This document shows positions 2,362 to 51,883 of a DNA stretch of 64,000 nt, in pieces. The translations under genes were made by a program, and so were the position numbers. Source of the DNA: a virus. The notes beneath the pieces were generated by a model that worked only from the letters and a program-made list of their open reading frames with translations, did no database searches and was not told the DNA's origin. The stretch is from positions 64,001-128,000 of IMG/VR virus record IMGVR_UViG_3300020048_000018; one strand, written 5' to 3'. Each line of letters starts with the position of its first letter. The stretch's first letter is position 1.

Positions 2362-3552
2362 ATGGAGTTCAAAATGGAGATAGACAAAAAAACAATTCTT
2401 TTAGTTGAAGATGAAGAATTGATAGCAATAGATAGAAAGCTTAATTTAGAAAAATATAATTTTAAGGTTGTTCATGCCAGCAACGGAGAACAAGCCTTAG
2501 AATTATTTAACACTGAAGAGAACATTTCTTTAGTTCTCATGGACATTGACCTTGGATGCTGTCCCGATGGTATAATGATAGCAAAAAATATCTTAAGTAT
2601 TAAGTATCTCCCCATAATATTTCTTTCAAATAAGAATGAGTCAGAATTAATATTAGAGATTGAATCTATAAACTCTTTTGGATACCTTAGTAAAACTTGT
2701 GACACCAAGGTGTTAGTTTCAGTTATGAATACTGCACTTAAACATTTTGAGTATTTTACGAAAGTTGAAGAAGGTGAGTCTAAATTAAAAGTAATGATAG
2801 CAAACATTGCGGATGTAATAGCAATTGTAACTCCTGAGGGAAGGGTACTCTATAAAAGTGAAAATATTAAAGAATCTTTCGGATATGAACCTATGGATTT
2901 TGGTGTTCACCTCACAGATACAAAAAATGCATGGGATTTGATTCATCCCAGTGATATAAGTATTATTCAAGTTCTTAGGAACAGACTTGTACAAAAAGAT
3001 AATATTTCATTAAAAGCAGATTTACGACTTTTATGTAAAAATGGTTCATATAAAAACATAAAACTTACTGCAACAAGCTTGCTAAACAATCCAAGCATAA
3101 AAGGGATATTATTAAGCTTTCATGATGTAACCGAAAAATCAAAAATTGAAAATGATATAACAGAAGCTAAATTATTATTTCATTCGGTAATTGATAGTAT
3201 ACCTCAAAACCTGTATGTTAAGGACCGTGAAGGAAGATTTATTCATGCTAATATTAATTACTGTAAACTTCAAGAGAAAACATTAAAAGAAATAATTGGT
3301 ATGACTGATTTTGATATGCACTCTAAAGAATTAGCGGAAAAATATTTAATGGATGATCAGCTTGTTATTGAGTCAGGGGTTATCCTTGAACTAGAAGAGT
3401 CTCATGAGGTTAATGGTACTCTCGAAACTGTACATGTAATAAAATCTCCCCTGCATGATCATAGAATGAGAACAGTAGGAACTATAGGTATTTTTTGGAA
3501 ATTGGATGGTATTCCTAAAAAAATTAAAAGGAAACCCAGAAAAAAACTTTAA
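2362..3552 (+). CDS. Response-regulator receiver + two PAS domains, no output domain
   Basis: ILLVEDE, LVLMDIDLG (phospho-Asp), PIIFLS, GYLSK; PAS-like IHPSD and YVKDREGRFIHAN...IIGMTDFD. Confidence 0.85.
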   Translation: MEFKMEIDKKTILLVEDEELIAIDRKLNLEKYNFKVVHASNGEQALELFNTEENISLVLMDIDLGCCPDGIMIAKNILSIKYLPIIFLSNKNESELILEIESINSFGYLSKTCDTKVLVSVMNTALKHFEYFTKVEEGESKLKVMIANIADVIAIVTPEGRVLYKSENIKESFGYEPMDFGVHLTDTKNAWDLIHPSDISIIQVLRNRLVQKDNISLKADLRLLCKNGSYKNIKLTATSLLNNPSIKGILLSFHDVTEKSKIENDITEAKLLFHSVIDSIPQNLYVKDREGRFIHANINYCKLQEKTLKEIIGMTDFDMHSKELAEKYLMDDQLVIESGVILELEESHEVNGTLETVHVIKSPLHDHRMRTVGTIGIFWKLDGIPKKIKRKPRKKL

Positions 3553-3556
3553 GATT

Positions 3557-3600
3557 AAAGTTTTGAACTTTTCCTGAAATTCCTATATATTATATATGTA
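3557..3600 (+). promoter_or_regulatory. Class I repeated promoter (TTGAAC-17-TATATT)
   Basis: AAAGTTTTGAACTTTTCCTGAAATTCCTATATATTATATATGTA directly upstream of pncB; one of 10 copies. Confidence 0.8.
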
Positions 3601-3624
3601 TGTTAAAACCAAGGAGTTTCTCAA

Positions 3625-4791
3625 ATGCAACACATAATTAAGTCTCTTATCGATAATGACCTTTATAAATTTAGCATGGCACAGGCAGTTCTTCATCAAT
3701 ATCCGGGTGCTTTGGTTGAATATTCCTTCAAGTGCCGAAACAAAGAACAGTTTTCAAAAAAGATGTTCAAGGAAATCCTAAAGGAGATTGACCATCTTTG
3801 TGCCTTGAAACTTACTCCAGAGGAACTTTCCTACCTTGGAACAATTAGATTCCTTAAAAAGGATTTTATTGATTTTCTCTCCCTATTGAAATTAAACCGT
3901 GACCACATTGTAATAACCCTTTCGGATGAAGGTCAACTCAGTATAAAGATTAAGGGTAGCTGGCTCCTCACCATCTTTTTCGAAATACCCGTCCTGTCAA
4001 TTGTCAATGAGGTCTATTTCAAAAATCTTGGAGTAAAACCAGACTATAAAGTGGCTATGGAACGTCTGTATGAAAAAATAGCCATAGCAAAAGTATCCAA
4101 GTTCAAGTTTTCTGAATTTGGAGGTAGGCGTCGATACAGCAGGGATTGGCAAGAACAGGTAATAGCAGAATTGGTTAAGCAGAAAGATGAAATTAATTTC
4201 ACTGGAACTTCCAATGTTTACTTTGCCATGAAGTTTGGTATTAAACCAATTGGTACAGTTGCTCATGAGTTTATTATGGCTCATCAACAACTCGGTCCAA
4301 GGCTCATTGATTCTCAAAGTGCCGCCCTTCAATCTTGGGTATCTGAATATCGTGGAGACAATGGTACCTTTCTTACGGACGTAATTTCCACTGACTCGTT
4401 CCTGAAAGACTTTGACCTGTATTTTGCAAAACTCTATGATGGACTTCGACATGATTCAGGAGACCCTATTGTATGGGCTAACAAATGTATCGCCCATTAT
4501 GAAAGCCTTAAAATAAACCCCATGACTAAGACCTTGATCTTCAGTGATGGTTTGGATTTCACCAAGGCTTCATATATCAATGAGGTATTAAAAGGACGAA
4601 TCAATGTAGCCATGGGAGTAGGAACGAACTTAACGAATGATTTTCCTGATATCAAAGCTCTTAATATTGTTCTCAAAATGACTGAGTGCAATGGGCGACC
4701 GGTGGCAAAGATTAGTGACACCCCGGGTAAGGGAATGTGCGAAAATCAAGACTTCATTGATTATCTTAAAAGCGTGTATGAATTAAAGTGA
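3625..4791 (+). CDS. pncB: Nicotinate phosphoribosyltransferase
   Basis: SLIDNDLYKFSM, SEFGGRRR, GTSNV, PIGTVAHE (phospho-His), GLRHDSGDP, FSDGLD, GVGTNLTND, VAKISDTPGK: PncB-type rather than NAMPT. Confidence 0.93.
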   Translation: MQHIIKSLIDNDLYKFSMAQAVLHQYPGALVEYSFKCRNKEQFSKKMFKEILKEIDHLCALKLTPEELSYLGTIRFLKKDFIDFLSLLKLNRDHIVITLSDEGQLSIKIKGSWLLTIFFEIPVLSIVNEVYFKNLGVKPDYKVAMERLYEKIAIAKVSKFKFSEFGGRRRYSRDWQEQVIAELVKQKDEINFTGTSNVYFAMKFGIKPIGTVAHEFIMAHQQLGPRLIDSQSAALQSWVSEYRGDNGTFLTDVISTDSFLKDFDLYFAKLYDGLRHDSGDPIVWANKCIAHYESLKINPMTKTLIFSDGLDFTKASYINEVLKGRINVAMGVGTNLTNDFPDIKALNIVLKMTECNGRPVAKISDTPGKGMCENQDFIDYLKSVYELK

Positions 4792-26673: not shown

Positions 26674-28572
26674 ATGGCAAATGAAGAAAGAATTGCAGAG
26701 CTTGTAAAAGATATTAAATTTTATCAAGACGATTATTACAATGGGGGACAAACAATCTCGGACTCCGATTTTGATGACCTCTGGAATGAACTCACAAAAC
26801 TTGACCCTAAAAACCCCATCTTGGGTGCGATAGGGTCAGACATGGAAGATGATGTTGAGGAAAGCTTCGATGGATTTGCAAAAGCAAAGCATATAATCCC
26901 AATGGGTTCTCAGCAAAAAGCCGCAAGTCCCGAGGAGTTTCTTACTTGGGGTAAAAAACATATCTATCCTGAGTACCTTGTCCAATTCAAATGTGATGGT
27001 GCTAGTTTAGAACTACAATATGAAAAAGGAATTCTACTTCGGGGTATTACCCGTGGAGACGGAAATTTTGGTGACGATATCACAGACAATGTTCGTAAGA
27101 TGAAAAATGTTGTTCTTAAACTTCCTGTACCTTTTACTGGGGGTATTCGTGGAGAAGTAATTATGGAGCATACTGTTCATAAAAACTTTTTTTCTGATAA
27201 AGCAAATTGTAGAAACGCCGCTGTAGGTCTTATGAAAAAGAAAGACGGAACAGGTTCAGAACATCTTAAAGTTATAACCTACGATGCAACTCCTACAGAC
27301 GGTAATTCCTACTTTATTACAGAGGAAGACAAAATCGAATGGCTCAAAGAAATGGGTTTCGAGATTGTAACTACAGTTATAGTGGAATCACTGGAAGAAG
27401 TAATTGATTATCGAGCACAAGTAATGTCTACTCGTCCTTCACTTGATTATGATATTGATGGTCTTGTTGTTAAGAACAACAGTATTGATCAGGCTGACCT
27501 TGCTAAACATCGTCCAGACAAACAGATTGCTTTTAAGTTCTCACTCGATGAAGCAGTAGCACCAATCCTCTCGGTTCGTTGGAGTGAGACCGGTGCTTCC
27601 TATACCCCAGTTGCACAGATTGAACCTACACAACTTTGTGGTACAACCGTTAGACAAGCAAACCTTTGTAATCCTAACATGATTACAAAAATGGATCTTA
27701 GAATTGGTTCACTCATTGTTATCACAAAACGTGGTGAGATTATTCCTAAGATTGAATCCCTTGTGGAAAATCCTGAAGGTTCAACACCAATTGAAATTCC
27801 TACGGAATGTTCTACCTGTGGTTCTAAACTTGTAAATGAAGGTACCCGATTGTATTGCCCGAACAGCACTTGCAGTAAAAAAGGTATTCATCAGATTATG
27901 AAATGGATAAAGACTCTTAAAATAAAAGAGTTTGGTACTGCTCTGGTAGATAGTCTCTACAGAGAAAAACTTATTACTTCCATTTATAGCTTGTATGTTT
28001 TGAAAACTTCTGACCTTGCAAACCTTGATCGTATGGGTGAAAAAAGTGCTTTGAAAGTATTGAAGAACCGAGATGCAATTAAATCAATTTCACTTCCTAA
28101 GTTTATTGCCGGATTTGACATTGAGGATATCGGACAGACTCTTGTAGAAAAACTTGAAGCAAGTGGATTTGATACTCTTGAAAAAATCTTAAAGATTAGA
28201 GTTTCTGAGATTTCTGACTTAAAGGGATTCAATACGATTACTGCTGAAAAGATTGTTAAGGGTCTTTCTGAAAATGCAGACCAGATGAGAAAACTTTCAA
28301 AAGATTTCATCACGATTGAACAGAAGTCCTTGCCAACAGATGGAGGAAAACTTAAGGGAATGTCCTTTGTATTCACCGGAGCACTTAATAATATTAAGAG
28401 AGCTGAAGCTGAAGATTTGGTTAAATCTTTGGGGGGTACAATTACGAGTGTTAATAAAAATTTATCGTTCCTTGTGACAAATGAATCCAGTAGTTCCGCA
28501 AAGTATCTAAAAGCATCTGAACTAGGTATTCCTGTCATTGATGAAGAAACTTTCTTAAATATGACAAGATAA
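26674..28572 (+). CDS. ligA: NAD-dependent DNA ligase
   Basis: YYNG...ISDSDFD.L, FKCDG, ITRGDG..GDDIT, IRGEV, IDGLVVK, AFKF, KRGEIIP, C..C Zn finger, HhH repeats, C-terminal BRCT (FVFTGAL). Confidence 0.95.
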   Translation: MANEERIAELVKDIKFYQDDYYNGGQTISDSDFDDLWNELTKLDPKNPILGAIGSDMEDDVEESFDGFAKAKHIIPMGSQQKAASPEEFLTWGKKHIYPEYLVQFKCDGASLELQYEKGILLRGITRGDGNFGDDITDNVRKMKNVVLKLPVPFTGGIRGEVIMEHTVHKNFFSDKANCRNAAVGLMKKKDGTGSEHLKVITYDATPTDGNSYFITEEDKIEWLKEMGFEIVTTVIVESLEEVIDYRAQVMSTRPSLDYDIDGLVVKNNSIDQADLAKHRPDKQIAFKFSLDEAVAPILSVRWSETGASYTPVAQIEPTQLCGTTVRQANLCNPNMITKMDLRIGSLIVITKRGEIIPKIESLVENPEGSTPIEIPTECSTCGSKLVNEGTRLYCPNSTCSKKGIHQIMKWIKTLKIKEFGTALVDSLYREKLITSIYSLYVLKTSDLANLDRMGEKSALKVLKNRDAIKSISLPKFIAGFDIEDIGQTLVEKLEASGFDTLEKILKIRVSEISDLKGFNTITAEKIVKGLSENADQMRKLSKDFITIEQKSLPTDGGKLKGMSFVFTGALNNIKRAEAEDLVKSLGGTITSVNKNLSFLVTNESSSSAKYLKASELGIPVIDEETFLNMTR

Positions 28573-34394: not shown

Positions 34395-34426
34395 AAAAGG
34401 GTGTCCAGAAAACTGGACACCCTTTT
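34395..34426. terminator. Bidirectional intrinsic terminator
   Basis: AAAAGGGTGTCCAG-AAAA-CTGGACACCCTTTT between convergent genes. Confidence 0.88.
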
Positions 34427-34435
34427 GATTTAGAT

Positions 34436-36463
34436 TTAAGATACGTCTGGAAGTATCTTTTCGGAATATGTAACCCAATTAATAGCATTCTTGTATTCAG
34501 AATAAGACACAGATGGAACAATAATTTGTACAACAGAACTTGGAAATACCAAGGTTCCAATATTTGTAAGTGGTGAAGACCTATTAACTATTACGGTATG
34601 CAACGCATTGCACCCAAGGAAAGCCGAGTTCCCAATAACATTAACAGACTCAGGAAGGGTTATTGTTGTTATAGCTTGACAGCTTTGGAAAGAAGACTCC
34701 CCTATTGTTAAAATACCTGAAGGAAGTATCACACTTAAAAGTGCAGTACAACTCTGGAATAATTTATCTGCAATATTTGTAATTCCTTGAGGAAGTACAA
34801 GAGAAGAAATCTTTGAGCATCCTTGGAATGCACCAGAACCAATTGTGGTTACAGTTGAGGGAACCTCTAATACTTCAAGGTTATAACAATTTTGAAAGGT
34901 GTTAGAGTTTATTGAAACTAGATTATTCGGAAGTGTTACAGAAACTAGCTGAGTACAGGAAATAAATGCTCCTGCCCCAAGAGATAATACTGTCTGAGGA
35001 ATTACCATGCTCGTTAGCATTGAACACTGACTAAACGCATTTGTCCCTATTGAGGTTAAAGATGAAGGAAGGGTAACATTTACCATTAAGCTACACCCCG
35101 AGAAAGTTCCTGACCCAATAGTTTTCACGGAAGATGGGATAGATAAAGAAGTAATCCCTGAGTTCTTAAATGCATTGTCATCTATTTTAGTTAGACTGCT
35201 TGGAAGACCAACTGTAGAAAGGGATGTACATCCAGAGAATATTCCTTCTGGTAGGATTGAAATTTTATTTGGGACAACAATATCCGTTAGGGAAGTGCAA
35301 CCATCAAAGGCACTTGTTCCTATGAAAGTAAGGGTGTATGGCAAGTCTATTGAAGTTAGTTCAGTACAACCTGCAAAAACAGAAGACCCTAATAGGTTTA
35401 ATGTTGAAGGTAACACGATTTCACTTAATACTTTACATCCTGCAAAAGCGTTTTCTCCAATGCTATTTATTTCGTCCTGAAGTACAATTGAAGAAAGGGA
35501 TTCACAACCAAAGAATAAGTTTGAAGGAATAGTGGTTATTGAGGAAGGAATACTTATTTCAACAAGGGAGGAATTAGAAAAAGAACCAGAACCAATTGAA
35601 GTAACTGTTGGAGGAATTACAATATTTGTAAGACCAGAACAATTCTCAAATACACCAGACCCTATATAAGTCACCGATTCAGGAATTATTAGTGTAGTAA
35701 TAGGAGAGTTTTTGAAAGCATTATCTTCTATACGAACAATAAAATCTGGTATCGATACAACGGTTTCAGTTCCTACAAACGAAGTTAGATTAGTTCCTGT
35801 AATAACAAAACTGGATAGGTCTGTTGTCATAGGATAAATTATATCAGCATACATAGAAAAATATTCAGAACTTTTATAAGCTTCCACGCTCTCATTTGGA
35901 ACTAAAATAACAAAGTTTGGACTACACCCAAGAAATACATCTACTCCTTGGGTAGGTGGAGATATTTGATTGTAAATTGCATAGGAAAGGGACTCACAAT
36001 TCTCAAAAGAGCTTGAACCTATTGAATTAATATTTTCCATAAACTCGATGTGAGTCAAGTTAGTACCAAAAAAGGAGTTGCTTTCAAGAGTAGTAAGGCT
36101 TTGGGGTAATTTTATTCCTGATAGTTTTGTACATCCTTCAAAAGCTCCATACCTAATTTCTAATAAACCAGAAGGAAAAATAACATCTGTAATATATTCC
36201 TTATCCTTAAACACATTTTGATATATGCTTAATACTCCATCAGGTATTATTACATAACTACTTAAGCTGTTGTAAGAAGACAATCCAGATTCATCTATAA
36301 CAAAAGTAGGTACATCCCCTTGTACTGCGATAAGTCTAATCAAAGAACTATAAGTTCTAAAAGGTAACGAGGGTGATACTTCTACCCCTTTCTCAATTAA
36401 AGCTGACCTTATCATGGCTTTTGTTTCTCTTAAATATTCAAGTTTGTTCAATATGATGCTCAT
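34436..36463 (-). CDS. BspA/TpLRR-type leucine-rich repeat protein (probable adhesin or tail component)
   Basis: Many units of about 23 aa: LTSIxLPxxLTxIGxxAFxxC. Confidence 0.9.
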   Translation of the reverse strand: MSIILNKLEYLRETKAMIRSALIEKGVEVSPSLPFRTYSSLIRLIAVQGDVPTFVIDESGLSSYNSLSSYVIIPDGVLSIYQNVFKDKEYITDVIFPSGLLEIRYGAFEGCTKLSGIKLPQSLTTLESNSFFGTNLTHIEFMENINSIGSSSFENCESLSYAIYNQISPPTQGVDVFLGCSPNFVILVPNESVEAYKSSEYFSMYADIIYPMTTDLSSFVITGTNLTSFVGTETVVSIPDFIVRIEDNAFKNSPITTLIIPESVTYIGSGVFENCSGLTNIVIPPTVTSIGSGSFSNSSLVEISIPSSITTIPSNLFFGCESLSSIVLQDEINSIGENAFAGCKVLSEIVLPSTLNLLGSSVFAGCTELTSIDLPYTLTFIGTSAFDGCTSLTDIVVPNKISILPEGIFSGCTSLSTVGLPSSLTKIDDNAFKNSGITSLSIPSSVKTIGSGTFSGCSLMVNVTLPSSLTSIGTNAFSQCSMLTSMVIPQTVLSLGAGAFISCTQLVSVTLPNNLVSINSNTFQNCYNLEVLEVPSTVTTIGSGAFQGCSKISSLVLPQGITNIADKLFQSCTALLSVILPSGILTIGESSFQSCQAITTITLPESVNVIGNSAFLGCNALHTVIVNRSSPLTNIGTLVFPSSVVQIIVPSVSYSEYKNAINWVTYSEKILPDVS

Positions 36464-37212
36464 TTCTTTTCCTCTTTATATGTAATTATTTTTGAAGTTG
36501 TTTTGCCAACAAGATACCAGCAGTAAAGGATGCAATAGAAGACAAGACTAATCCACCAATAAGTAGCTTGTTCTTTAAGATTAAAGATTTTATTTGTTTC
36601 TGGTCCTTGTCCACTGATTCCTGTAAGGTTGTTGAGGTCTCCTGTGATAGTGTCAACAAGTCGGATACTCCTTTCAATTCCGCTTCCAAGTTTGCTATTA
36701 TAAGCTTCAATTGACCTATTATATCCTGTAAGCTTGTCTGTTGAATCAAGGCTTGATCTAATTGCTTCTGAAGCTGTTGTATTTTCAACTCCGAGCTGTC
36801 CAGTAATTTCTTGGAGTTGGCTAAGGAAGACCTTGCTTTCAGTAAGAGTAATGTTAAGCTCTTTATTTCGTTCTGTGAGTTCTTCAACAGTACTTGTGAG
36901 AGTTCCAACTGTTTTGAGGCTTCCATCAAGTTCTGTTTTAGCAGAATCAAGTTGTCCACGGAGGGTTGAAACGAGTAGCTTTGAATCTGAATAGTTGTTG
37001 CTTGTGCTGATAATGGAAGTGATAAGAACAATGTTGAGAACAATAGATATGCCACAACCAATGTAAAATGCTTTCTTAATTTTATCATTAGAGATTTCCT
37101 TTATAGGGAGTATTTTTGAAAAGTTTTCTGCTGAAAAAGTTTCTTTTAATTTATCAAATGCTTCAGACTTTATCTTTTTTAGACCTGAGAAAAGTATTGC
37201 TCTTATATTCAT
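36460..37212 (-). CDS. TM-anchored coiled-coil protein (i-spanin/Rz-like candidate)
   Basis: AAAGGG RBS; cytoplasmic-type basic N-terminus, TM FYIGCGISIVLNIVLITSII, long heptad region. Confidence 0.6.
   Translation of the reverse strand: MNIRAILFSGLKKIKSEAFDKLKETFSAENFSKILPIKEISNDKIKKAFYIGCGISIVLNIVLITSIISTSNNYSDSKLLVSTLRGQLDSAKTELDGSLKTVGTLTSTVEELTERNKELNITLTESKVFLSQLQEITGQLGVENTTASEAIRSSLDSTDKLTGYNRSIEAYNSKLGSGIERSIRLVDTITGDLNNLTGISGQGPETNKIFNLKEQATYWWISLVFYCILYCWYLVGKTTSKIITYKEEKK
36486..37088 (-). CDS. Embedded out-of-frame coiled-coil protein with signal peptide and C-terminal TM
   Basis: Own AAAGGA RBS; MIKLRK + hydrophobic + AQA site; Leu/Gln heptads; C-terminal LLIGGLVLSSIASFTAGILLA. 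Confidence 0.6.
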   Translation of the reverse strand: MIKLRKHFTLVVAYLLFSTLFLSLPLSAQATTIQIQSYSFQPSVDNLILLKQNLMEASKQLELSQVLLKNSQNEIKSLTLLLLKARSSLANSKKLLDSSELKIQQLQKQLDQALIQQTSLQDIIGQLKLIIANLEAELKGVSDLLTLSQETSTTLQESVDKDQKQIKSLILKNKLLIGGLVLSSIASFTAGILLAKQLQK

Positions 37213-37337
37213 TTTTTACCCTTTCGCTTATGAATTAGTTGCAAGAAATTATTATTACTTTTTTTATAAATTTAATCAAAATTCCAAGTATCCCTGTTAA
37301 TATATCATATATAGACAATACGAATTAGGAGAAATTA

Positions 37338-39067: not shown

Positions 39068-40918
39068 ATGAGTGAACTACTGAACAAAATAAATTACTTG
39101 ACTGAAACGAAAAACCTGATGAAAGCAAAATTAGGTACAACCTCTGACATCTTGAGAGACTATGTTCCTCTCATGAAATATGATGACGGAACAGCTCCAA
39201 AAGAATGGAGCGAAGCTGATTGGTTAGATGTTTATAATAGTTACCAAAGACCTGCTGATTGGTTAACAATTCCTACAATTTTGGAATCTGAACAAAAAGT
39301 AATTGGTCTCTATCCAGTTTACGACCATGACTCAAATTTCGTTGCAGTTACAATCTCAGGAAATTATTCCGTAGACTGGGGTGATGGAGTTACAGAAAAC
39401 TTCGTAGCAGGTGTGAAAGCTGAACATAGTTATGACTATGCAACTTGTGGAAATCTTTCTACATTAGGCTACAAGCAGGTATTAATTACGATTACTCCTC
39501 AAGCAACTTTTAATTTGACCTCAGTAAACTTAGGGGTTTTTCATACTTCAGCACCAAATAGCCCCAATTCATTTTTAGACATTTCTGGGAATGGAAGTTT
39601 AATTACTCTCTTTAATGTTCAAAACTTACCTATATTAAACTCTTTTAGTTTAGGATTAAATAATATTACAAACTTTTCTTATTTGTTTTATGGTTGTCCT
39701 TCTTTACAAACTATCCCACTTCTAAATACAAGTTTAGGTACAAACTTTCAATCTATGTTTTATACTTGTCTTGCACTACAAACTATTCCACTTTTTGATA
39801 CAAGTAAAGGTACAAACTTTTCTCAGATATTTAGTAATTGTACTGCCTTGCAAACGATTCCACTTCTTAATACAAGTTTAGGTACTGACTTTTCTGGTAT
39901 GTTTATTAATTGTACTTCCTTAAAAACAATTCCACTTCTCGATACAAGTAATGGTACAAACTTTTCTGCTATGTTTCAGAATTGTTATTCCTTACAAACG
40001 ATTCCCCTTCTTGATACAAGTTTAGGTACAACCTTTTCTCAGATGTTTAATATGTGTAAGTCATTACAAACGATTCCACTTATTGATACAAGTTTAGGTA
40101 CAAATTTTTCTATTATGTTTACTAGTTGTTATTCCTTACAAACGATTCCACTTCTCGATACAAGTTTAGGTACAAACTTTACTTCTATGTTTAGTAGTTG
40201 TACTTCCTTACAAACGATTCCTCTTCTTGATACAAGTTCAGGTACAAACTTTACTTATATGTTTAGTGGTTGTTCTTCATTACAAATTATCCCACTTCTC
40301 AATACAAGTTTAGGTACAGGACTTGGGGCTATGTTTAGTGATTGTACTTCCTTACAAACGATTCCGATTCTTGATACAAGTAAATGTACAAACTTTACTT
40401 CTATGTTTCAATCTTGTAAATCATTACAAACTATTCCACTTCTTGATACAAGTTTAAGTTCAAACTTTTCTTCTATGTTTTATGATTGTCCTTCCTTACA
40501 AACGATTCCACTTATTGATATAAGTTTAGGTACAGACTTCTCTTATATGTTTTATAATTGTAAATCCTTACAAAGTATTCCACTTCTCAATACAAATTTA
40601 GGTACAAACTTTAATTCTATGTTTAATGGTTGTCCTTCCTTACAAAGGATTCCACTTCTCGATACAAGTAAGGGTACGAGCTTTACGGCTATGTTTCAAG
40701 GTAGTTCTTCATTAGGGAAAGCAACTTTACTAAACACGAAAACAACAATTTCATTTGAAAGTTGTAAGTTGAGTAAATCCGCTCTTGTTGATATTTTTAA
40801 TAATTTAGCAACAGTGACTGGTCAGACTATTACTATTACAGGAAATTACGGTGCATCTTTATTAACCGCAGAGGATAGATTAATTGCAACAAATAAAGGT
40901 TGGACAATAGTTGGATAA
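39068..40918 (+). CDS. LRR (BspA/DUF285-like) repeat protein, probable receptor-binding or tail protein
   Basis: PKD-like VDWGDG module; 24-aa repeats; N-terminus similar to 34436..36463 protein. Confidence 0.85.
   Translation: MSELLNKINYLTETKNLMKAKLGTTSDILRDYVPLMKYDDGTAPKEWSEADWLDVYNSYQRPADWLTIPTILESEQKVIGLYPVYDHDSNFVAVTISGNYSVDWGDGVTENFVAGVKAEHSYDYATCGNLSTLGYKQVLITITPQATFNLTSVNLGVFHTSAPNSPNSFLDISGNGSLITLFNVQNLPILNSFSLGLNNITNFSYLFYGCPSLQTIPLLNTSLGTNFQSMFYTCLALQTIPLFDTSKGTNFSQIFSNCTALQTIPLLNTSLGTDFSGMFINCTSLKTIPLLDTSNGTNFSAMFQNCYSLQTIPLLDTSLGTTFSQMFNMCKSLQTIPLIDTSLGTNFSIMFTSCYSLQTIPLLDTSLGTNFTSMFSSCTSLQTIPLLDTSSGTNFTYMFSGCSSLQIIPLLNTSLGTGLGAMFSDCTSLQTIPILDTSKCTNFTSMFQSCKSLQTIPLLDTSLSSNFSSMFYDCPSLQTIPLIDISLGTDFSYMFYNCKSLQSIPLLNTNLGTNFNSMFNGCPSLQRIPLLDTSKGTSFTAMFQGSSSLGKATLLNTKTTISFESCKLSKSALVDIFNNLATVTGQTITITGNYGASLLTAEDRLIATNKGWTIVG
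39662..40720 (+). repeat. Coding tandem repeat, 72-bp unit, 14 full copies plus one partial
   Basis: Unit (L/K)GTNFSxMFxxCxSLQTIPLLDTS; DNA core ACAAACGATTCCACTTCTTGATACAAGTTTAGGTACAAACTTT. Confidence 0.9.
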
Positions 40919-43773: not shown

Positions 43774-44625
43774 TTAAGAAAACTTAATTGCAAAATAAAA
43801 TATTATACTAAAAACAGAAAGTACAGAAATACCAACTATCAAGGGGACTCTCATTATCCAAATCCATTTTTTTATTTTTGTACTTAGATAATTTCTTTCT
43901 TTATAAAGTTTTGCACTATCTCCATCTACTGCACTCCAAGCCTCTTTAATAAACTTAAAGTCTTCATAAGGAAGAATAGTATAGCCCTTGTTTGCCCAAG
44001 AAGTGCCCCAGCTATTCCTTACAATAAATCCTAATTCATCATATCCTACAATTGTCATTGCATGTTTACCTACCTTTATGTCTTCTACTCTTTCTTTTTT
44101 CCAAAGAGAAGATCCATAATTGTATACATCAACAACTATCATGCAAGGTCCATAGGCAATTAAAGCTTTTTTCATACCATCAATTGTTTTAACCTTTGCA
44201 TAGCTTTTTATTGCGAAAGGAAGCGAGTTTTTAATTAATTCTGAGGAAGGGATACTGATAAGCTTTTCGTTATCAACATAAGGAAACTCCTTTTCCAGAG
44301 AAATTCCTTTTGTGTATAAAATTGACATAGCATCTCTTGGATACATACCACTAAAAGGTTTAGTCATTCGTTGGGAATATACATATAAGGGGCTAGTGTA
44401 TCCTTCAATTTTAGAATCAATCTTCTCTTGATAATCTTTTATTGTGGAAACCGTCATAGCAACACAAGAGCCTAGAGTGCCTTGATTTCTGACAGGAAAA
44501 AGTTTATCTACCAATGAAAAAGTTTCTGGTAGATTTGAAGAAAATGCAATTGACTTGAAAACTTTTTCAATTTTCCAATCACGCAAATCAAATTTAGACT
44601 TTAAAGAACCTAAATAAAAATCCAT
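43774..44625 (-). CDS. Papain-family (C1) cysteine peptidase with C-terminal TM anchor
   Basis: VRNQGTLGSCVA (Gln, Cys), KHAMTIVGY (His), VRNSWGTSW (Asn); C-terminal hydrophobic helix. Confidence 0.88.
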   Translation of the reverse strand: MDFYLGSLKSKFDLRDWKIEKVFKSIAFSSNLPETFSLVDKLFPVRNQGTLGSCVAMTVSTIKDYQEKIDSKIEGYTSPLYVYSQRMTKPFSGMYPRDAMSILYTKGISLEKEFPYVDNEKLISIPSSELIKNSLPFAIKSYAKVKTIDGMKKALIAYGPCMIVVDVYNYGSSLWKKERVEDIKVGKHAMTIVGYDELGFIVRNSWGTSWANKGYTILPYEDFKFIKEAWSAVDGDSAKLYKERNYLSTKIKKWIWIMRVPLIVGISVLSVFSIIFYFAIKFS

Positions 44626-44631
44626 AATAAA

Positions 44632-45279
44632 TTACTCCTTATCCCCAAAAATAGATTCACCTTTAACAAGCCAAGATGTACCAAAAGCATATAACATAAT
44701 AAACTCAATGATTAAAATAATAACATTGTCCTGCATTTCTACTCTACTTATTATCAAAGTCATAACAGATAAAATAATAAAACCAACAGCCATAATTAGA
44801 CCACAAGAAATATAAATTAAGTTTCTAAGTTTCTTTTTATCTGTCATGGTCTCTTTATTTCCTGTCCTTGTGAATAAAAAAATACAATTATAAGATAAAA
44901 GTAAAAAGAAGGTAGTAGCAAAGAACAGATGAATCCAACCCGAAATGAAAGGAGGTAATTGAAATACTCCTATAGGTAAAACTCCGTCATTAACCGTAGA
45001 TGCAGGAACAAGAGCAATAATTATTCCAGATATTCCAATTAGGGTTGTAATTATGTTATCCAATTTTGAGTATCCAAAATAAGTTATACAAAACAGACTT
45101 ATACCAAATAAAATTCCTACAAACACATCTTGCATATTAGTATAATAATATGCGCTTATATTTGGTTGTATACCATGTTTACTTAATATTCCCCCTATCA
45201 AACATGACAAAGGCAATAAAAAAGCTAAAAACCCTATCAACCTTCTTAAGCTTCTATACGAGATAATAATTGAATCCAT
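44632..45279 (-). CDS. Polytopic membrane protein, DUF998-like
   Basis: LRRLIG.L...LP, ISAYYYT...DVFVG.L, HL.FA..FF, E......FG.SWLVKG. Confidence 0.65.
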   Translation of the reverse strand: MDSIIISYRSLRRLIGFLAFLLPLSCLIGGILSKHGIQPNISAYYYTNMQDVFVGILFGISLFCITYFGYSKLDNIITTLIGISGIIIALVPASTVNDGVLPIGVFQLPPFISGWIHLFFATTFFLLLSYNCIFLFTRTGNKETMTDKKKLRNLIYISCGLIMAVGFIILSVMTLIISRVEMQDNVIILIIEFIMLYAFGTSWLVKGESIFGDKE

Positions 45280-50216: not shown

Positions 50217-51167
50217 CTACACCCTCCACATCTTTTCAATTATTTTTTCAAACTTATATATCTCAGATTTTGAGAAATTATATTTAGATACCACATTAGA
50301 ATAAAAGAAGTCTAATGGTTCATTCCTATTTTCTTCACTCATTGCACAATAGTCTGCACACATCTCTACAAGAGAGTAATCATCTATTGGTTCTGTCCTA
50401 TCAGTAAACTTCCAATAATCAGGATGATGTTTATTCTCTATTCTATGAATAGAAGTAGCTTGTTTTAAGATAACCGAAAGTTCATTTCTTGTTGCATCAT
50501 CCATGTAAGGTAAAAATTGTTCTCTACCAAATTTGCATCGCATCTTTTCAGTAAGCAAAGCATATTCTACGATTATTTCTCTACTAAACTTATGACTATC
50601 ATGTTTTATTACGGTATTGTATAGTTCCTCAAAATCCATTTTCTCAACAAAATCTTTTCCGAAACCTGTTTCATCAAGTTTTATATCAGCAATAAACTTC
50701 TTGGTGAATTTGATAACTCGTTGAATATGATTAATTGTCCTATAGTAAAAGTATTCCCGCATATCGTCAGTTATGAGCTGTGTTAAAGGGTTTCTATTAT
50801 TTCGAGGGTTTGAAAAGTTCCTGAGACTTACATAATAAGGAATGAATCTCCAATCAATATTAAGTAGGCAGTTATCATCAATGCAGGTATCTCCAAAAGC
50901 TTTTGGATAGGGCTTATATTCAAGGTAAGGACAATTCTCATTAATCTTATCATACTTAACACCATTATTGGTTAGGAAGTTTTTCACATCTTCAATATGT
51001 TCGTCCATGAATCTTGCAGTCCAGATAATAATGTAGTATCCATCATCATGTAATTTATTTATAGCTTCTTTTGCATAGGGCTTTAATTTCCCTGTTTCGC
51101 AGGAGAAGGGCCAACTTTCAGTTGCACAGGTATCGTCAAAGTCTATGAGTAAAACTTGAGGTCTCAT
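50217..51167 (-). CDS. Fusion of HAD-like phosphatase and HD-like (DUF5662-like) domain
   Basis: IDFDDT, IIWTAR, INEN, CIDD; then T..HI..V, HDSHKF, HR..NKHHPDYW, LVEMCAD; start moved to 51167. Confidence 0.7.
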   Translation of the reverse strand: MRPQVLLIDFDDTCATESWPFSCETGKLKPYAKEAINKLHDDGYYIIIWTARFMDEHIEDVKNFLTNNGVKYDKINENCPYLEYKPYPKAFGDTCIDDNCLLNIDWRFIPYYVSLRNFSNPRNNRNPLTQLITDDMREYFYYRTINHIQRVIKFTKKFIADIKLDETGFGKDFVEKMDFEELYNTVIKHDSHKFSREIIVEYALLTEKMRCKFGREQFLPYMDDATRNELSVILKQATSIHRIENKHHPDYWKFTDRTEPIDDYSLVEMCADYCAMSEENRNEPLDFFYSNVVSKYNFSKSEIYKFEKIIEKMWRV

Positions 51168-51535
51168 TTTGGTTTCCTTTTTGGTATAAACTTCTTTGTA
51201 GAAGTCTCTTTCAATTCCTTTATCCATTGAATCTTCTTTGACTCAAATACCCTACTATTATACATTGTAATACAAGATTCTTCTCTTAACAAGAACAGAT
51301 TAAAAGCACAAAGCATCTTGTAGTGGTTATCACCTTTTGCATGTATTTTACACAATAAATAGTGAGCAAGGAAATGTTCTCTAGGGGTTAGTAAAACTAA
51401 GTTAGCCTTGGTGTTTTTCCCACCAAGACTTCTAGGCTTAATGTGATGTTCTTCGTAATAGACACCCTTATATTTTTCTCTTTTAAGGGTTTTAATAAAC
51501 TTCACATAATCGGTATAATTTTTTTTATAATTCAT
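51164..51535 (-). mobile_element. Short free-standing HNH endonuclease
   Basis: YYEEHHIKPRSLGG.N...NLVLLTPREHFLAH.LL. Confidence 0.85.
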
Positions 51536-51553
51536 ATGTAAAGTTTAGTATTA

Positions 51554-51883
51554 CTATTCAGTTTTCACAATAATAGGAACTTCTGAGATTCCAACCTTAT
51601 TGAAACGTCTAAACCATTTCATATAAATTTTCCAGTCTTCTTTAAGTTCCTCAGTAATTTCTCTTTTTGTTTCAACTTCTGGAACAACTGGCTGATCAGG
51701 TGTAGCAACCTCTGATTCTTTCAAAGCCTTTTTTTCAATGTAATACTTTTCGAGAAACTTTTTAATACCTTCCTGATCTGCGTCAGTAGCATTAGAAAAA
51801 TCAATCCCCTCAATAAGTGTTCCATTTTCTGTTGTGATAAAAACTTTTCTCTTTTTACCTGTGTACATAAACTCTCTTAACAT
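51554..51883 (-). CDS. Hypothetical protein (Sm-like YTGKKRKVF pattern)
   Basis: ORF track; AGGAGG RBS. Confidence 0.55.
   Translation of the reverse strand: MLREFMYTGKKRKVFITTENGTLIEGIDFSNATDADQEGIKKFLEKYYIEKKALKESEVATPDQPVVPEVETKREITEELKEDWKIYMKWFRRFNKVGISEVPIIVKTE

Follow-up and report, generated by a model that had tools for sequence, protein, structure and literature searches.

Two-component spanins can be encoded by embedded or overlapped genes. Examples are Rz/Rz1 of phage lambda, 18.5/18.7 of T7 and LysB/LysC of P2 (Kongari et al. 2018, PMC6139136). The Rz/Rz1 pair of LambdaSo is a canonical nested spanin with a lipoprotein (bioRxiv 10.1101/2024.01.23.576932). All nested spanins found in our literature searches were canonical and contained a lipoprotein. 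Here, we describe a nested gene pair that shares the layout of these systems but has no lipobox. We focused on a 64,000-nt stretch (hereafter the window), equivalent to bases 64001-128000 of the 178,053-bp IMG/VR virus record IMGVR_UViG_3300020048_000018. On the minus strand of the window, a 200-codon open reading frame (ORF) lies within a 250-codon ORF (Table 1). We refer to the longer and shorter ORFs, and to their products, as outer and inner, respectively. As in two-component spanins, the second gene occupies the +1 frame of the first and has its own internal Shine-Dalgarno (SD) sequence.

Overprinted genes are also known from classical phages. In phiX174, B lies in A and E lies in D; the L gene of MS2 is a further case. 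These tiny genomes are under size pressure. The pair resembles such genes in being a same-strand, out-of-frame arrangement, in which one frame has atypical codon usage and both frames bear signs of selection. Unlike them, it resides in a phage of >178 kb, the overlap is ~200 codons long, and both products combine a transmembrane (TM) segment with a coiled coil. From the sequence comparisons below, we conclude with good confidence that the locus, from an uncultured jumbo phage, encodes two proteins in overlapping frames of one strand (overprinting). Slightly less firmly, we think it probable that the locus yields one late transcript and two envelope rods that act late in infection. Same-strand dual coding over ~200 codons in a large double-stranded DNA phage would be a case for which genome-size pressure is no explanation. 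With TM segments and coiled coils in both products, the locus could serve as a model for the tolerance of heptad-repeat proteins to overprinting.

The inner frame is open beyond chance

The nesting was described in an earlier note, made from the sequence alone, as a 200-aa ORF fully inside a 250-aa ORF on the same strand in another frame. This description holds. The inner start is 124 nt from the outer start, placing inner in the +1 frame, and the overlap spans 603 of the 753 nt (80%) of the outer gene. The separate ribosome-binding sites (AAAGGG and AAAGGA) and the upstream ACTAATT motif reported in the same note were confirmed by reading the sequence.

We compared the outer gene with other genes of the contig. 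Its 204-codon open +1 run is the longest among 184 long ORFs; the next is 121 codons. Synonymous codons of the outer gene were redrawn according to genome usage, with the outer protein kept (20000 trials). The redrawn genes contained a mean of ~20 stops in the +1 frame and the longest open run was 127 codons. Shuffling the gene's own synonymous codons gave P<5e-5, and permuting its codon order gave P=7.5e-4. Codon choice in the outer gene is skewed away from +1 stops. Hence, TTA encodes 1 of 29 Leu residues (27% expected) and GTA none of 10 Val residues (39% expected). Conversely, CTC is used for 10 of 29 Leu residues (9% expected). The outer gene contains seven +1 stops, none of them within the overlap. 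An SD 5-mer like that of inner precedes ~5.5% of internal out-of-frame ATGs, compared with ~52% of true starts. A chance origin of the open inner frame is excluded in the window.

Both frames are retained in diverged homologues

Homologues were sought using the outer protein. A HMMER search of 1.84 billion representatives recovered only P0002 (228 aa, E=8e-25) and P0003 (154 aa, E=7e-7). A profile search added P0004, and the P0003 cluster comprises five further members. The corresponding DNA was P0002-bearing contigs L003 and L004, and contigs L005-L013, from sewage and wastewater metagenomes, for the 154-aa group. We therefore compared three lineages: the window (lineage 1), L003 (lineage 2) and L005-L013 (lineage 3). 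Word-indexed protein searches returned outer itself as the only match for outer, and no match for inner. Scans of IMG/VR with each protein, with alignments A1 and A2, and with the adjoining DUF998-like protein gave no match. The same was true of two JGI metagenome scans with A3, the alignment of inner proteins, and A4. Gene callers always call outer and never inner. Because they choose the outer frame, inner is missing from protein databases, and protein-level homology searches systematically miss it.

L003 is part of a related phage, whose C1 peptidase and six-TM protein are 59% and 49% identical to the products of window ORFs 43774-44625 and 44632-45279, respectively. The inner frame of L003 is open for 196 codons (3059-3649); TTG is the start codon and GGAGAGGAG lies 10 nt before it. 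The product aligns to inner of the window without gaps, with 41% identity over 194 residues. In L005, L011 and L012, the inner ORF encodes 200 aa (L005:160-762) and starts 4 nt after the outer ATG (ATGAATGA), so that the two starts have a single shared SD. The lineage 3 inner ORF extends 142 nt (47 codons) past the outer stop and still ends in the conserved TM segment. The outer ATG and SD are found in all three lineages. Across these lineages, the inner frame is retained at about 59% nucleotide identity. The result that the earlier note had named as refuting its reading, homologues with just one open frame, was not observed across the three lineages.

Within-gene synonymous shuffles were made for each lineage. 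The probability of a stop-free inner frame was 1.5e-4, <5e-5 and 5e-5 in the three lineages, and that of a stop-free outer frame was about 2e-3 in each. The third sense frame has 17-29 stops over the same stretch. A frameshift or assembly error was rejected, as both frames are open across the whole overlap in three independent assemblies. An antisense gene was also rejected. L003 has a 199-codon antisense ORF (2979-3578, minus strand), but this frame is closed in the window, where the antisense frames have 27, 9 and 6 stops. The open antisense frame of L003 is probably compositional.

Substitution patterns point to selection on both frames

The earlier note had proposed homologues, and suppressed synonymous variation between them, as the means of checking both frames. 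Overprinted pairs are expected to have both frames open beyond chance in diverged homologues and reduced synonymous variation in the overlap. Both features were found here, the inner wobble divergence being halved in the overlap. Briefly, we compared L005 with L011, which are 11% divergent. The 458-nt overlap contains 51 substitutions, distributed 22/7/22 by outer codon positions 1/2/3. These comprise 18 that are non-synonymous in outer and synonymous in inner, 19 of the reverse type and 14 that change both proteins. The last class accounts for 56% of mutational opportunities and is thus depleted, as is also expected of an overprinted pair. Among inner-non-synonymous changes, outer-synonymous ones are enriched, which indicates constraint on outer (p=2e-4, or 0.013 with transition/transversion weighting); this test is conservative if inner alone is selected. 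Inner wobble positions diverge by 14.6% in the overlap but by 34% in the inner-only tail (p=0.005). Substitutions in the tail fall 11/3/16 by inner codon position, an ordinary single-gene pattern.

Similar signs are evident at greater depth. The inner wobble position is purine-rich in each of the lineages and has the composition of a first codon position, not that of the T-rich wobble of the genome (chi2 about 60). Between the window and L003, nucleotide identity by codon position is.62/.74/.46 in single-coding control genes,.63/.63/.50 for inner and.51/.64/.62 for outer. Such flattened profiles are expected from two superimposed frames. The peak nucleotide identity between the window and L003 in the locus (87%) is in the block over the outer TM segment. 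In this block (IS...NIV), residues S56 and N60 of outer are invariant in all homologues. Because the block encodes merely the hydrophobic region (h-region) of a signal peptide in the inner frame, the identity points to selection on the outer TM segment.

Several observations weigh against dual coding. The substitution sample is small (51 plus 30) and comes mainly from one pair of clades. The reciprocal test, for constraint on inner, gave p=1e-3 (0.036 with transition/transversion weighting) and is anti-conservative because first-position changes are milder. Outer amino-acid identity between the window and L003 is 32.5%, which is not above that of non-coding frames in the same ungapped alignment (29.5-32.5%). 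Since residue identity equals that of the null frames, the case for outer at this depth is made by openness, start signals and composition. The length of outer also varies among lineages (250, 228 and 154 aa); the N-terminal TM segment and helix are kept and the C-terminus is variable. Finally, the low-coverage contig L013 (212-553) carries a C-to-T nonsense change at inner codon 114, which is a Thr-to-Ile change in outer. The change may be an error from low coverage; otherwise it is a naturally occurring knockout.

We considered whether one frame might suffice. By sequence comparison, inner is the better-conserved, full-length protein of the pair. Hence, inner could be the sole gene and outer a non-functional open frame, preferred by gene callers for its AT-rich third positions. 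This would account for the higher identity of inner (41% versus 33%), its full length in all lineages and its far more confident AlphaFold2 (AF2) model. It would also explain why nucleotide conservation is lowest at the inner wobble, why outer identity equals that of null frames and why outer length is variable, with a 'YWW' forced by the 'IGG' of inner. However, outer is open in three lineages by a conservative shuffle and keeps its ATG and SD in each. The first-position composition of the inner wobble, the halved inner synonymous rate in the overlap and the outer-synonymous enrichment, from a test that is conservative under precisely this explanation, also argue against it. Furthermore, the best-conserved block covers a usually poorly conserved signal h-region and gives the outer TM segment its invariant Ser/Asn face. 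We regard inner as sole gene as unlikely. The converse, that outer is the sole gene and that its coiled-coil composition and unusual codon choice happened to leave the 200-codon inner ORF open, is very improbable. It draws on the genome-typical GC content of outer by codon position (.435/.40/.28, compared with.426/.332/.281 for the genome) and on the third-position value of inner (.435). In addition, a heptad pattern or hydrophobic segment in one frame is partly reproduced in the other, and antisense frames of the L003 region are also stop-poor. Even so, the open inner frame is an extreme outlier, retained with a start codon and SD in three diverged lineages. In lineage 3 it continues beyond the outer stop to a conserved TM segment. 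Its ungapped identity is above that of all other frames, the third position of outer is as conserved as the second (.62, compared with.46 in control genes), and outer codon choice avoids +1 stops. Consequently, same-strand dual coding is our preferred interpretation.

Both frames are predicted to encode membrane-anchored helical rods

The earlier note read heptad coiled coils in both frames. Consistent with this, the 3.5-residue hydrophobic periodicity is strong in each (power of 11.6 and 9.8 for the two frames, compared with ~1 expected). No other ORF pair of the 178-kb contig is both bitopic and strongly heptad.

For outer, an N-terminal TM segment had been proposed. Hydropathy bears this out: a basic N-terminus of ~45 residues, rich in K, precedes a peak at residues 51-69 (TM segment at about 48-70). 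A second feature had been missed: the C-terminal part of outer, at about residues 216-236, is a hydrophobic segment rich in W/Y/C that lies over the inner TM segment. The 'YWW' in this segment is forced by inner, and lineage 3 dispenses with the segment entirely. The AF2 model of outer (predicted local distance difference test score, pLDDT, of 62) has a TM helix at 43-70, a helix at 74-198, a disordered stretch and a hydrophobic C-terminal helix at 212-249. With outer as query, the ESM Atlas gave just resemblances to long helices, MCP signalling domains among them, and all scores were <0.9. Outer is thus predicted to be a membrane-anchored helical rod, with its N-terminus inside and the rod outside.

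For inner, hydropathy and sequence agree with the AQA signal, C-terminal TM segment and lack of Cys noted earlier. Peaks occur at residues 8-26, where a K/R-rich n-region leads to ...SAQA, and at 175-193. A Sec-type signal peptide is predicted from residue 1 to about 29, with ...SAQA as type I cleavage motif, and ~15 disordered residues follow it. The AF2 model, from a 4-sequence alignment, has a pLDDT of 81 and exceeds 90 over about residues 60-170. It consists of a signal helix (2-21), a disordered region (22-40) and a single continuous helix (41-198) running into the TM segment. The latter forms the last ~20 residues of this helix and has a small-residue, glycine-zipper-like face. Invariant residues in A3 include the IGG...G face of the TM segment and Leu at heptad spacing. 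Inner length is constant across the three lineages (196-200 aa), with a signal peptide, long helix and C-terminal TM segment throughout. Inner of the window contains no Cys. In homologues, Cys occurs at position 9 (L003) or in ..STLC (lineage 3); the position is not conserved and there is no canonical lipobox. Judged by these sequences, inner is not a lipoprotein and would have no lipid anchor. Instead, it is predicted to be a processed, C-terminally membrane-anchored helical rod, with the rod outside.

These features suggest how the locus may work. A single late transcript would run from ACTAATT to the downstream hairpin (Table 1) and contain two start sites. Initiation at the first would produce outer, inserted with its N-terminus inside, a TM helix with a Ser/Asn polar face and a helical rod of ~125 residues outside the cytoplasmic membrane. 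Initiation at the internal SD and ATG, in the +1 frame, would produce inner, with a cleavable Sec signal and a short flexible tip. An extracytoplasmic helix of ~135 residues would then lead straight into the C-terminal TM segment with its glycine-zipper-like face. Hence, both rods, with a predicted length of about 19-20 nm, would be rooted in the inner membrane but anchored at opposite termini, and could lie side by side in antiparallel orientation. Oligomerisation may involve the heptads and the polar or small-residue TM faces. We infer that the assembly would act on the host envelope late in infection.

Comparison with spanins

The earlier note interpreted the pair as a non-canonical two-component spanin or membrane-fusion device, perhaps adapted to a spirochaete envelope. 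The +1 geometry and the Rz-like architecture of outer remain in favour of a spanin. Like an inner-membrane spanin subunit (i-spanin), outer is predicted to have an N-terminal TM segment and a helical, heptad-rich extracytoplasmic domain. Outer of lineage 3 is 154 aa long, compared with 153 aa for Rz. The pair family also includes both spanin geometries: embedded (window and L003) and overlapped (L005-L012). What does not fit is the absence of a lipobox, the absence of a recognised lysis cassette next to the pair in the window and the presence elsewhere of a more canonical pair, a TM protein and a small lipoprotein. Thus, inner does not have the lipobox Cys of an outer-membrane spanin subunit, which counts against a spanin role. 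Embedded spanin partners are ~60-100 aa long, whereas inner is 200 aa, fully alpha-helical and has a type I signal-peptidase site, a C-terminal TM segment and no conserved Cys.

By sequence, the pair does not group with the Rz/Rz1 families. When the two proteins and their homologues were compared with Pfam and PHROG, the matches were all to coiled coils and sub-threshold; the top Rz-like match in the family was phrog_739, for P0004 (E=0.07). Searches of PDB sequences returned only generic coiled-coil matches, with E of at least 0.003. The unimolecular spanin gp11 of T1 (PMC6139136) resembles inner in having an N-terminal export signal and a C-terminal TM segment, with a domain of periplasmic length between. 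However, the export signal of gp11 is that of a lipoprotein and its periplasmic domain is rich in beta structure, whereas inner has no lipobox and is predicted to form a single long helix. Bacterial FtsB/FtsL-type and DUF948 proteins also have a single TM segment and a Leu-rich extracytoplasmic coiled coil. The likeness is of architecture only, with no significant homology; the match of P0004 to DUF948 is sub-threshold (E=0.0012; 19 bits, compared with a cut-off of 37).

Genomic context further weakens a spanin role. In the window, no recognised holin or endolysin adjoins the pair, and gene neighbourhoods differ among all three lineages. A more conventional 'separated' spanin candidate of the phage lies outside the window, at 50822-51703 of the contig (L015:923-1804). 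There, a gene for a 206-aa protein with an N-terminal TM segment is followed directly by one for an 86-aa lipoprotein (lipobox FVSC) that weakly matches phrog_812, 'Rz-like spanin' (E=1.7e-4). The contig has at least six lipobox ORFs. Scans of the contig found no match to the Rz (PF03245), Amidase_2 or lysozyme families; its sole recognised peptidoglycan hydrolase domain, SLT, is 27 kb from the pair. In L003, the pair sits in a run of membrane-protein genes. Two small multi-TM ORFs (134 and 83 aa; 2334-2986), with stop/start overlaps, are directly upstream in a holin-like layout. These ORFs have no family matches and there is no recognised endolysin around the L003 pair. In lineage 3, an ADP-ribosyltransferase-like gene is upstream of the pair.

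Possible roles of the pair

We have not classed the pair as a spanin, because the lipoprotein and family hallmarks are missing while the i-spanin architecture and +1 nesting are present. A spanin function is plausible and is weakened by context. Spanin-like disruption of the outer membrane without a lipid anchor is the most likely single specific role, and a tentative one. A role of some other kind carries the same weight. We are more doubtful of a lipid-anchor-free, two-subunit envelope-breaching (spanin- or fusion-like) device, in which an antiparallel, membrane-rooted bundle would engage the outer membrane through the processed N-terminal tip of inner. Superinfection exclusion or envelope remodelling is a similarly slender prospect, and another form of lysis control, holin- or antiholin-like, seems unlikely. 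If the pair acts in lysis, it would be a lipoprotein-free answer to the question, raised in PMC6139136, of how 'spanin-less' phages breach the outer membrane. If it forms an envelope-breaching device, it would be an unannotated alternative to Rz/Rz1.

Both proteins could also be real without forming a lysis device. Instead, they might make up an envelope module of late or moron type that, for instance, excludes superinfecting phages or blocks injection, or form a membrane scaffold linked to the neighbouring receptor-binding-type leucine-rich repeat (LRR) protein. The window pair is in a unit with the BspA-LRR gene inside a tail-fibre-like block, neighbourhoods are not conserved and another locus of the phage offers a better candidate for a canonical spanin. 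Moreover, exclusion proteins are often bitopic inner-membrane proteins. Conversely, ACTAATT also precedes structural genes, suggesting late timing, and the L003 pair directly follows two small multi-TM ORFs in a holin-like layout. The +1 nesting and the Rz-sized outer of lineage 3 also mirror embedded spanins (PMC6139136). On balance, we give such a module a minor share of the probability.

Organisation of the locus

In the window, the pair and the BspA-LRR gene form a two-gene minus-strand unit inside a block of tail-fibre-like genes. The outer stop codon and the ATG of the LRR gene overlap by 4 nt (ATGA). Downstream, the hairpin between convergent genes is probably a bidirectional terminator that closes the unit. 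Upstream, ACTAATT is one of 50 copies in the contig. Of these, 30 are outside long ORFs, which leave 22% of the contig, and 20 sit 15-80 nt upstream of a gene start. This distribution is consistent with a phage-specific promoter element. Structural genes are also preceded by ACTAATT, which suggests late timing. A scan for sigma-70 promoters gave a signal not above that of shuffles.

Table 1. Coordinates in the window of the nested pair and its associated features
Feature	Position	Strand	Basis
Outer ORF, 250 aa (250 codons)	36460-37212	-	ORF list
Inner ORF, 200 aa (200 codons), +1 frame	36486-37088	-	ORF list
SD-like AAAGGG of outer ORF, 6 nt before ATG	37219-37224	-	Sequence reading
SD-like AAAGGA of inner ORF, 8 nt before ATG, within outer coding sequence	37097-37102	-	Sequence reading
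ACTAATT motif upstream of the pair, candidate phage (late) promoter element	37233-37239	-	Sequence reading
Outer TM segment; same bases encode inner signal-peptide h-region	37003-37071	-	Hydropathy, alignments
Inner C-terminal TM segment; same bases encode W/Y/C-rich hydrophobic C-terminal segment of outer	36504-36566	-	Hydropathy, alignments
BspA-type LRR (LRR_5) gene, 675 aa, downstream, probably co-transcribed	34436-36463	-	ORF list, family search
Perfect 14-bp GC-rich hairpin between convergent genes, with A-run/T-run flanks	34395-34426	.	Inverted repeat in the sequence

The product of the LRR gene shares an N-terminal motif of ~20 aa (MS..LNK..YL.ETK...) with a DUF285/LRR protein encoded at 39068-40918 on the plus strand. 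This suggests a paralogous pair, from genes on opposite strands, of receptor-binding or fibre proteins that share an attachment module. The Peptidase_C1 gene (papain-family, with a C-terminal TM segment) and the six-TM DUF998-like gene are adjacent in both the window (43774-45279, minus strand) and L003 (3-1225), with their order swapped. They are ~1.7 kb upstream of the pair in L003. In the window, they are ~6.5 kb from the pair, with plus-strand fibre-like genes between.

The phage and its contig

CheckV estimates the 178,053-bp record to be 69% complete; the phage is therefore of jumbo class. GC content is 33%. Searches of 50,697 phage records by blastn and tblastn gave no match for the region, the inner protein or the putative capsid. 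Hence, the phage is remote from anything cultured. As a host test, a REC-PAS protein compared with genome contigs had only a 27% match, to a Bacteroidota metagenome-assembled genome. This match is uninformative on the spirochaete host suggested by the earlier note. Elsewhere in the window, a 632-aa gene (26674-28572, plus strand) contains a 195-codon stop-free antisense run (ORF 27984-28538, 184 aa), the longest open antisense run of the contig.

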